Source: Escherichia phage 121Q
Sequence record: NC_025447.1
Length of the DNA: 64,000 nt
Reading direction: 5' to 3' (one strand)
The translations under genes and the position numbers were made by a program. The notes beneath the pieces were generated by a model. The model was not told the DNA's origin and made no database searches. It saw nothing but the letters and a program-made list of their open reading frames with translations. Positions 1,066 through 2,178 of the stretch are shown here, one piece after another (the first letter of the stretch is position 1; each line of letters begins with the position of its first letter).

Positions 1066-2178
1066 ATGAAAAAGTATTTGGTTGGCGGTTACGTCCGTGA
1101 CCGTTTAATGGGCATCCGTGCAAAAGACAAAGATTATGTCATTGTTGGTGCATCCGAATCTGATCTTAAGTACTTGCAAAGTATTGGCTATAAGCAAGTA
1201 GGTAAGGATTTCCCAGTATATCTAAGTCCAGAAGGTAATGAACACGCATTAGCCCGTACTGAGCGTAAAACTGGTACTGGATATGGTGGCTTTGAAGTGG
1301 ATACAAAAGGCGTAACACTAGAACAAGATTTGTATCGCCGTGACCTTACAATTAATGCAATTGCGTATGATCCAGTACTACAAATTCACATCGATCCATA
1401 CGGTGGTAAAGCTGATATCAAGAACAAGATACTACGTCATGTTTCTGACCATTTTAAAGAAGATCCATTACGCGTGTTACGTCTTGCTCGATTTGCTACT
1501 CGTTATTCAGACTTTACTATCCATGAAAGCACTGAGGAACTCGCTATTGGAATGGTCAATAGTGGTGAGCTAAATCATCTTGTTCCTGACCGTGTTTTTG
1601 TGGAATTCGAAAAATCATTTTCTGAAGAAAAGCCTTCAAAGTTCCTTAAGACGCTAAGTAAATTTGGTTATTACGAAAAGGTGTTTAATACATCTTTGAC
1701 CAAAAAGAATTTAGACCTTATTGATTATATTTCAGATAACTGTACTGATGTATATAAACCATATTTTCTGTGGTCTATTCTTCTTGAAAATGAAGAAGTA
1801 AATAATGATTCAGTACTTAACGGTGCTATTAAAGTTCCAGTTAAGTATGTTAAATTTAGTAATTATATCAAACGTTTCCGTGATGATATCAAAACATTCC
1901 GTAAAAAGACCCCAATTGAAATGGGTAATATTTTATTGGATATGAATATTAAAAATAACGGAGGTGAAGAATTCCTTTATAAAGTTTTGGAATACTTCAT
2001 TTTGCGAAAAGAAATTGATTTAGAACTTGAAGATCTAATTATTAAAGTTTATGATCGTTATACTGATGTTGAATTGCCTGATATTCAGCAAATGGTCAAA
2101 GATGGTGAACTTGAAACGTCAGAAATTCGTGATTTTGTTTGTGAACTTCGTTACGAAGCAATCAAACAAATGTTCTAA
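1066..2178 (+). CDS. cca: CCA-adding tRNA nucleotidyltransferase (class II head/neck domains, no C-terminal HD phosphohydrolase domain)
   Basis: N-terminus LVGGYVRDRLMG..DKDYVIVGA, ARTERKTGTGYGGF, RRDLTINAIAYD, EDPLRVLRLARFA match bacterial Cca head domain from memory; C-terminal 150 aa lack H..HD motif. Confidence 0.85.
   Translation: MKKYLVGGYVRDRLMGIRAKDKDYVIVGASESDLKYLQSIGYKQVGKDFPVYLSPEGNEHALARTERKTGTGYGGFEVDTKGVTLEQDLYRRDLTINAIAYDPVLQIHIDPYGGKADIKNKILRHVSDHFKEDPLRVLRLARFATRYSDFTIHESTEELAIGMVNSGELNHLVPDRVFVEFEKSFSEEKPSKFLKTLSKFGYYEKVFNTSLTKKNLDLIDYISDNCTDVYKPYFLWSILLENEEVNNDSVLNGAIKVPVKYVKFSNYIKRFRDDIKTFRKKTPIEMGNILLDMNIKNNGGEEFLYKVLEYFILRKEIDLELEDLIIKVYDRYTDVELPDIQQMVKDGELETSEIRDFVCELRYEAIKQMF

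Follow-up and report, generated by a model that had tools for sequence, protein, structure and literature searches.

A putative CCA-adding enzyme of Escherichia phage 121Q with a decayed HD scaffold, and the phage tRNAs that it probably completes

The cca gene and its annotation

We analysed a stretch of 64,000 nucleotides from Escherichia phage 121Q (sequence record NC_025447.1; hereafter the window), with emphasis on a gene near its beginning, cca, which is predicted to encode a CCA-adding enzyme, that is, a class II transfer RNA (tRNA) nucleotidyltransferase. A preliminary description, made from the sequence alone, had placed this gene at positions 1066-2178. The list of open reading frames (ORFs) bears this out, with an ATG at 1066 and a stop codon at 2176-2178 enclosing 370 codons on the + strand, and the start is coupled translationally to a small upstream ORF at 942-1064 (TAA-C-ATG). 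Over its full length the product matches the profile of phrog_2244 (E 6.7e-116; residues 1-369 on profile positions 3-387 of 392). The features of the gene and its product are as follows.

1054..1059, + strand: Shine-Dalgarno-like GGGGGA (direct sequence reading)
1066..2178, + strand: cca, class II tRNA nucleotidyltransferase, 370 aa plus stop codon (ORF list, Pfam, phrog_2244)
1066..1506, + strand: head (catalytic) domain, aa 1-147 (conserved motifs)
1084-1101, + strand: motif A GGYVRD, aa 7-12
1126-1134, + strand: catalytic D21-K-D23
1246-1293, + strand: flexible loop ALARTERKTGTGYGGF, aa 61-76
1336-1344, + strand: motif B RRD, aa 91-93
within the head domain, + strand: motif C, D110/D117
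1459-1473, + strand: motif D EDPLR, part of EDPLRVLR, aa 132-139
1507..1686, + strand: neck domain, aa 148-207, including motif E (R176, E180) (Pfam PolyA_pol_RNAbd at 149-207)
1687..2175, + strand: body/tail region, aa 208-370, predicted all-helical, homologous to the HD-bearing C-terminus of E. coli-type Cca but degenerate, metal ligands lost

The first 6 kb of the window are 99.6% identical to the jumbo coliphages vB_EcoM_G17 (370.8 kb; hereafter G17) and Sharanji (350 kb, genus Asteriusvirus), and the Cca proteins of these phages are 100% identical to the one described here. The gene occupies one place per phage record, so that each genome holds a single copy, and most related records label its product cca, CCA-adding enzyme or tRNA nucleotidyltransferase. 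The phage gene is already known: it is present in PHROGs and annotated in GenBank, a role in phage tRNA maturation was proposed in 2013 for gp031 of phage RaK2 (PMC3622015), and CCA-adding enzymes are listed among the common genes of jumbo or huge phages (PMC7824862, PMC7162821, PMC5852040). As a gene call alone it matters little. What the present analysis adds to the known annotation is the correction concerning a dead HD site, the CCA-less substrates and the pattern at position C74 of the phage tRNA genes.

Catalytic head and neck

The motifs GGxVRD, DxD, RRD and EDPLRVLR, which the preliminary description had read in the N-terminal part, are all present, and the likeness to bacterial Cca noted there amounts, for E. 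coli Cca, to 51% identity (199 bits) over residues 1-207, where the BLASTP alignment stops. Pfam PolyA_pol (PF01743) matches the head at residues 4-124 with 68.8 bits against a cut-off of 23, and PolyA_pol_RNAbd matches residues 149-207 with 32.8 bits. We took the definitions of the motifs (DxD carboxylates, basic residues of the flexible loop, motif B, motif C spring, EDxxR template and motif E) from PMC11784652 and assessed their conservation in an alignment of 39 full-length homologs with 38-93% identity. Residues G7, G8, R11, D12, D23, R64, E66, K68, R91, R92, D93, D110, D117, E132, D133 and R136 of the head are invariant (39/39), as are R176 and E180 of motif E in the neck, while D21 is kept in 37 and R67 in 38 of the 39 homologs; the catalytic carboxylates of a Cca-type class II nucleotidyltransferase (D21 and D23) are therefore in place.

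The best NCBIfam model is that of E. coli-type Cca (PRK10885/NF008137; 2e-81, 273.8 bits), although only profile positions 1-207 of 409 are covered. Models of the poly(A) polymerase PcnB remain below their cut-offs (TIGR01942, 91 bits versus 305.65; NF008634, 47.6 bits versus 702), and the BLASTP alignment with E. coli PcnB (29%, 66 bits) is gapped in the region of the flexible loop. A PcnB-type paralog, an alternative which the preliminary description had raised, is rejected by the comparison of these values, both in BLASTP (51% and 199 bits for Cca versus 29% and 66 bits for PcnB) and in NCBIfam (274 versus 91 bits). The flexible loop aligns with that of E. coli Cca without gaps and at equal length. 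This loop is needed in the switch to A-addition and is deleted in CC-adding enzymes (PMC11784652); its length therefore indicates that a deletion of the CC-adding type is absent. All sequence and structure criteria tested point to a member of the class II CCA-adding enzyme family, whose head and neck belong to the gammaproteobacterial Cca branch.

The C-terminal body and tail and the lost HD site

Past residue 207, pairwise BLASTP detects no similarity between the phage protein and E. coli Cca. The Pfam HD domain (PF01966) gives no match in the phage protein at E values up to 1, nor in its relatives, and the same model is found at residues 229-328 of E. coli Cca, which served as a positive control. 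Since residues 208-370 contain no histidine at all, and no conserved His column exists across the family in the 39-homolog alignment, an H...HD...D metal site is impossible in the phage C-terminus.

The preliminary description had called the last 150 residues unrelated to the HD domain of E. coli Cca. As far as the loss of a functional HD site is concerned this holds, but the word unrelated is wrong, as became visible only when profiles were compared with profiles. Using hhalign, a profile of phage C-termini aligned with a profile of HD-bearing Cca C-termini with 96.5% probability (E 7e-10) over 160 columns, and with the neck wholly excluded, by cutting at residue 212 or 220, the probability was still 96.4-96.5% over 111-112 columns (E about 1e-9), whereas the controls (one reversed and ten column-shuffled) gave 0.1-0.2%. 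The alignment sets phage residues 248-369 in register with approximately residues 282-403 of E. coli Cca, and the gaps of the phage profile coincide with the positions of the His/HD ligands. By the same method, no relation was detected to the other common HD-less C-terminus of cellular proteins, that of the 'IQQNK' group of about 366 residues (for example P0085 on a 1.36-Mb contig; probability 0.5%), and the phage form is thus not simply this variant.

The structural prediction of the C-terminal region, proposed as a check in the preliminary description, yields a confident fold. An AlphaFold model built on the 39-sequence alignment has a predicted local distance difference test score (pLDDT) of 93.3 and a predicted template modelling score of 0.86, with pLDDT at least 90 through the C-terminus; it matches structures of CCA enzymes over 293-343 residues and displays their head-neck-body-tail ('seahorse') architecture. 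Within the region, a basic helix at residues 255-282 carries 10 K/R versus 2 D/E. The C-terminus evolves faster than the head (mean identity 29-38% versus 69%) and has conserved patches at F264, N297, G299, G300, E301 and D330. Taken together with the profile comparison, the model indicates that the phage C-terminus is a decayed HD/body-tail scaffold, presumably retained for tRNA binding.

This has a bearing on nomenclature. GenBank names of the form 'multifunctional CCA protein' or '... 2'3'-cyclic phosphodiesterase/2' nucleotidase/phosphatase' are carried by the proteins of Sharanji, slurp01, phAPEC6, GAP32, Serratia BF, CBB, 7t3, Muenster and others. Because the HD site is absent, the phosphohydrolase part of such names on RaK2-like Cca proteins is over-annotation, and since that site is dead the database names need correcting. 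In CRJP21 and Ecwhy_1, the feature under the cca match has apparently been mislabelled, its name being 'Appr-1-p processing domain protein' or 'phosphatase'.

Compared with E. coli Cca (NF008137 / PRK10885), the phage protein shares a collinear head and neck (residues 1-207, 51%) with D21/D23, RRD and EDPLRVLR, the flexible loop ARTERK.G.GY.GF, and a C-terminal scaffold that is remotely homologous according to hhalign (96.5%). It differs in being 42 residues shorter and in lacking HD, and so has no Ni/metal-dependent phosphatase or 2',3'-cyclic phosphodiesterase site. With neither an HD domain nor a score at the NCBIfam cut-off, it lies outside the multifunctional HD-active Cca equivalog in spite of the homologous scaffold. 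To RaK2 gp031 (phrog_2244) the family match is full-length and the C-terminus is 65% identical; the protein is the Asteriusvirus ortholog of gp031, and nothing substantive differs between the two. The HD-less class II enzymes of Thermotoga maritima (3H37), Geobacillus stearothermophilus (1MIV) and human (1OU5) are 21-24% identical in structural alignments; unlike these, the phage protein has a head and neck of the gammaproteobacterial Cca branch and a body/tail that would stem from an HD-bearing ancestor.

Distribution of the phage form

A tblastn search with the C-terminal 163 residues found matches in 69 of 50,697 phage records, all of them RaK2-like myoviruses of 310-386 kb, whose hosts represent nine genera (Escherichia, Klebsiella, Salmonella, Erwinia, Yersinia, Cronobacter, Serratia, Pectobacterium and Xanthomonas). 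A single-sequence HMMER search with the same 163 residues against 1.84 billion representatives gave five matches, all from the protein's own family (four full-length and one fragment). The N-terminal part is present in 486 phage records. The absence of HD is common and in itself unremarkable, because Pfam HD occurs in only 7 of the 36 N-terminal-only relatives among the matches listed, and because most class II enzymes with solved structures have no HD.

Phage tRNA genes as likely substrates

ARAGORN finds no tRNA gene inside the 64-kb window, as the preliminary description had stated in placing the substrate elsewhere. A complete genome that is 97.6% identical over the cca region (OR844650.1) holds seven tRNA genes in a single cluster. 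The same cluster lies at 77.9-82.2 kb in G17, about 162 kb from cca (244.3-245.4 kb). Three of the seven genes encode N73-CCA (Ser-UGA, Arg-UCU and a 90-nt tRNA(CAU)), and the remaining four (Gly-UCC, Ser-ACU, Asn-GUU and Thr-UGU) are CCA-less, reading N73-C-A-(A/T).

We examined sampled tRNA stretches of two more distant phages with the same cca family and found 2 genes with CCA and 3 without in Erwinia phage Kaldavass, and 3 with CCA and 9 without in Serratia phage BF. Over the three phages, 8 tRNAs are encoded with CCA and 16 without (16/24 CCA-less). Two coliphages that have no cca served as controls: CCA is encoded in all 22 tRNAs recovered from T5 and in 4 of the 8 of T4. The difference between the jumbo phages and T5 in CCA encoding (Fisher p = 8e-7) concerns few and related genomes and is indicative only. 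The question of the substrate is thereby answered: two thirds of the sampled tRNA genes of this lineage need CCA completion, and those of T5 none.

The CCA-less genes have a further property in common. All 16 keep C74 (G17, L010 366-4608; Kaldavass, L012 5050-13192; Serratia BF, L018 5523-17802), and none has a C at position 75, where A stands in 11 genes, T in 4 and G in 1. The binomial probability of such retention is at most 2e-10 at p(C) = 0.25, and 4e-9 when the genes are collapsed to 14 distinct anticodons. T4 keeps C74 in 2 of its 4 CCA-less tRNA genes. RNase T removes A/U-rich trailers quickly, and a C at the 3' terminus inhibits it strongly (PMC5824355). Trimming of the 3' end may stop at C74; alternatively, this residue may mirror which substrates the phage Cca prefers. 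The pattern was not found described for phage tRNAs in the literature, the coverage of which was incomplete and is no proof of absence. The invariance of C74 leads to a simple and testable model of how phage tRNA 3' ends would be made in a host whose own tRNA genes encode CCA.

T4 offers the closest comparison. Like the jumbo phages, it encodes a cluster of tRNAs of which some half or more are CCA-less (4/8 in T4), so that CCA addition is required, and its CCA-less tRNAs are the classic case that needs host Cca (PMC6468291 and the reference cited there). It differs in having no cca and relying on the host enzyme, and in C74, which stands in 2/4 of its CCA-less genes versus 16/16 in the jumbo phages that bring their own enzyme.

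Some individual tRNA genes are unusual. The 90-nt tRNA with anticodon CAU, A73 and encoded CCA is conserved between G17 (L010 2857-2946) and Kaldavass (L012 7001-7090); it has a long, poorly paired variable region (type-II-like) and is annotated as tRNA-Met, the candidate identities being Met, Ile via lysidine, or another. At 2758-2849 of L010, G17 encodes an unusual tRNA-Ser with anticodon ACU (A34). Kaldavass has, at L012 5866-5939 and 13115-13192, an amber-suppressor-like tRNA(CUA) and a tRNA with an 8-nt anticodon loop (ttag).

Function of the phage enzyme

In our view the gene product is likely to be an active CCA-adding enzyme that serves mainly to complete those phage tRNAs which are encoded up to N73-C74, with general CCA repair as a by-product. 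Head and neck would keep all that is needed to add C, C and A without a template, and the helical body/tail, descended from an HD-containing Cca C-terminus, would hold the tRNA; with the loss of the metal ligands, the 2',3'-cyclic phosphodiesterase/phosphatase side activity would be gone. About two thirds of the lineage's phage tRNA genes end at N73-C74, with an A/U-rich trailer behind. We infer that host exonucleases trim this trailer, that RNase T stalls at the 3' C74, and that the phage enzyme then adds C75 and A76. By the same chemistry, any tRNA whose CCA end becomes frayed in the course of infection could be repaired too. A private supply of Cca would be useful to the phage because all E. 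coli tRNA genes encode CCA and the host Cca is a non-essential repair enzyme (PMC6468291).

Several points weigh against this interpretation. The tRNA comparison covers five phages, three related ones and two controls, and these are not independent of one another phylogenetically. T4, with 4 of 8 tRNAs CCA-less, manages on host Cca, which implies that a phage enzyme is not strictly required. The protein (273.8 bits) does not reach the NCBIfam Cca equivalog cut-off of 451 bits, because its C-terminus is divergent. In A-adding enzymes, specificity is known to shift with changes in the body/tail, and full CCA activity is not readable from sequence. The tRNA cluster has a strong promoter motif that occurs nowhere in the window, so that cca does not share it. 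Finally, no biochemical characterisation of any phage CCA-adding enzyme was found in the literature, although coverage was incomplete and this is not proof of absence.

The primary role of the enzyme might instead be the repair of tRNA 3' ends, of host as well as phage tRNAs, in translation maintenance or counter-defence and together with neighbouring genes of RNA and translation rescue. This agrees with the surroundings of cca in homologs at 41-53% identity, where it lies in a block with genes for Nudix, glutaredoxin, YqeY, peptidyl-tRNA hydrolase 2 (PTH2), S30AE/HPF and macro-domain proteins, those with YqeY and PTH2 domains being downstream in relatives; one homolog locus also has an RNA ligase gene, some 6 kb upstream. 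A hibernation-factor-like (sigma-54 modulation/S30AE) gene lies about 1.6 kb upstream of cca in Sharanji (L001 5134-5466), outside the window, and a relative with 53% identity likewise has an S30AE-like gene close upstream of cca (L016 4792-5169). In addition, an overview of jumbo phages groups the CCA-adding enzyme with RNA-repair genes (PMC7824862), and genes for a polynucleotide kinase and an RNA ligase are present in RaK2 as well (PMC3622015). The surroundings of cca thus have the flavour of a translation/tRNA block, but such linkage is weak evidence and does not prove functional coupling, because the whole region, including structural genes such as those for neck and sheath, is syntenic among related phages. 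Moreover, most tRNA nucleases leave 2',3'-cyclic phosphate ends, which the protein would not clean now that the HD phosphoesterase is lost, and this loss, if it bears on the matter at all, makes it less likely that phage Cca alone is specialised in repairing ends cut by nucleases; no CCA-removing defence system was linked to these phages in this analysis; and the CCA-less phage tRNAs represent a simpler and sufficient need. We therefore regard repair as an unlikely primary role, while noting that it shares its chemistry with the completion of phage tRNAs and does not exclude it.

A more far-reaching version of the tRNA-completion model would be that RaK2-like phages run a private, co-evolved tRNA-activation module, in which most tRNA genes are deliberately truncated to N73-C74 and a lineage-specific, HD-less Cca with a re-modelled body/tail is tuned to tRNA-NC ends. 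If this were true, the function of phage tRNAs would depend on the phage enzyme, so that its timing could be controlled or the tRNAs shielded from the host's 3'-end quality control and defence. We offer this as a speculation that is rather improbable.

The diverged body/tail might also have restricted or altered the specificity, leaving an enzyme that adds A only, that adds C75-A76 on tRNA-NC, or that acts like a poly(A) polymerase. We judge this to be very unlikely: head and neck are far nearer to Cca than to PcnB (199 versus 66 bits), the flexible loop has the length found in E. coli Cca and invariant basic residues, unlike CC-adding enzymes, the single cca copy per genome leaves no CC/A partner pair, whereas an A-adding enzyme, whose body/tail admits only tRNA-NCC, usually has a CC-adding partner, and a stop of RNase T explains the retention of C74 equally well. 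Fold and sequence, however, do not discriminate against the A-adding and CA-adding forms. That the phage captured a host cca of which only a decaying or non-catalytic remnant is left, as the missing HD catalytic residues and the quickly diverging C-terminus might suggest, is effectively refuted by the pattern of conservation, given that catalytic residues are invariant over 39 homologs down to 38% identity, that the C-terminus is confidently folded (pLDDT at least 90) with the conserved patches F264, N297, G299, G300, E301 and D330, and that the gene is kept in 69 phage genomes from nine host genera.

Genomic neighbourhood and regulation

The features around cca in the first part of the window are listed below.

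105-521 and 508-930, + strand: two overlapping tandem paralogs, both phrog_20693, directly upstream of cca in the same apparent operon
2286-2687, + strand: Nudix protein, 133 aa (Pfam)
2689-2937: glutaredoxin (Pfam), followed by two small ORFs
3477-3500: strong terminator-like hairpin with a perfect 10-bp stem, AAGGACTCTG-ACCA-CAGAGTCCTT, then a T-rich run; a hairpin on both strands
3518-3994, + strand: macro-domain protein, 158 aa, BT1257/SCO6735/Poa1p type (PDB sequence matches)
4335-4712, + strand: weak PTH2-like ORF, 125 aa, just upstream of the neck gene
4959-5765: gp13-like neck gene

The Nudix and macrodomain neighbours named in the preliminary description are recovered, the former by Pfam and the latter by PDB sequence matches (2fg1, 1e-15; 5e3b, 1e-11; Poa1p-type 6lfu, 4e-6), with Pfam Macro under its threshold (E 0.018) and 'phosphatase' as the family name in PHROGs. 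The hairpin sits between the cca-Nudix-glutaredoxin block and the macro-domain gene. The Nudix protein matches only the C-terminal positions 175-297 of 301 of phrog_1185, whose members in other phages have an additional N-terminal domain. The ORF at 4335-4712 is 29% identical (E 5e-15) to a relative's gene that has a weak Pfam PTH2 call; its own Pfam PTH2 match is not significant (E 0.18) and it has no PDB sequence match, but it may be a very divergent peptidyl-tRNA hydrolase 2.

The assignment of cca to an early block, made in the preliminary description, is not supported. A scan of positions 1-6000 for sigma-70 promoters is at chance level (28 found versus 29.8 expected), and cca shares its strand with the genes for neck and sheath, the neck gene lying 2.8 kb downstream of it. 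As the scan is at chance and the promoter motif of the tRNA cluster is absent, the sequence gives no indication of when cca is expressed or of whether it is regulated together with the tRNAs.

The 10-mer TTCAGTACTG occurs 11 times in the window, versus 0.14 expected, with sites at 12-21, 570-579, 3554-3563, 14722-14733, 17654-17663, 22635-22644, 23133-23142, 24643-24652, 49592-49601 and 53123-53132. The site at 14722-14733 is a 12-bp palindrome, TTCAGTACTGAA, and the core of the 10-mer is also found in the spacer of three repeated strong sigma-70-like promoters of the tRNA cluster (TTGACTAAATAGTTCAGTACTG.TATAAT; L002, about 33410, 33000 and 32540). It is probably a regulatory site of the phage.
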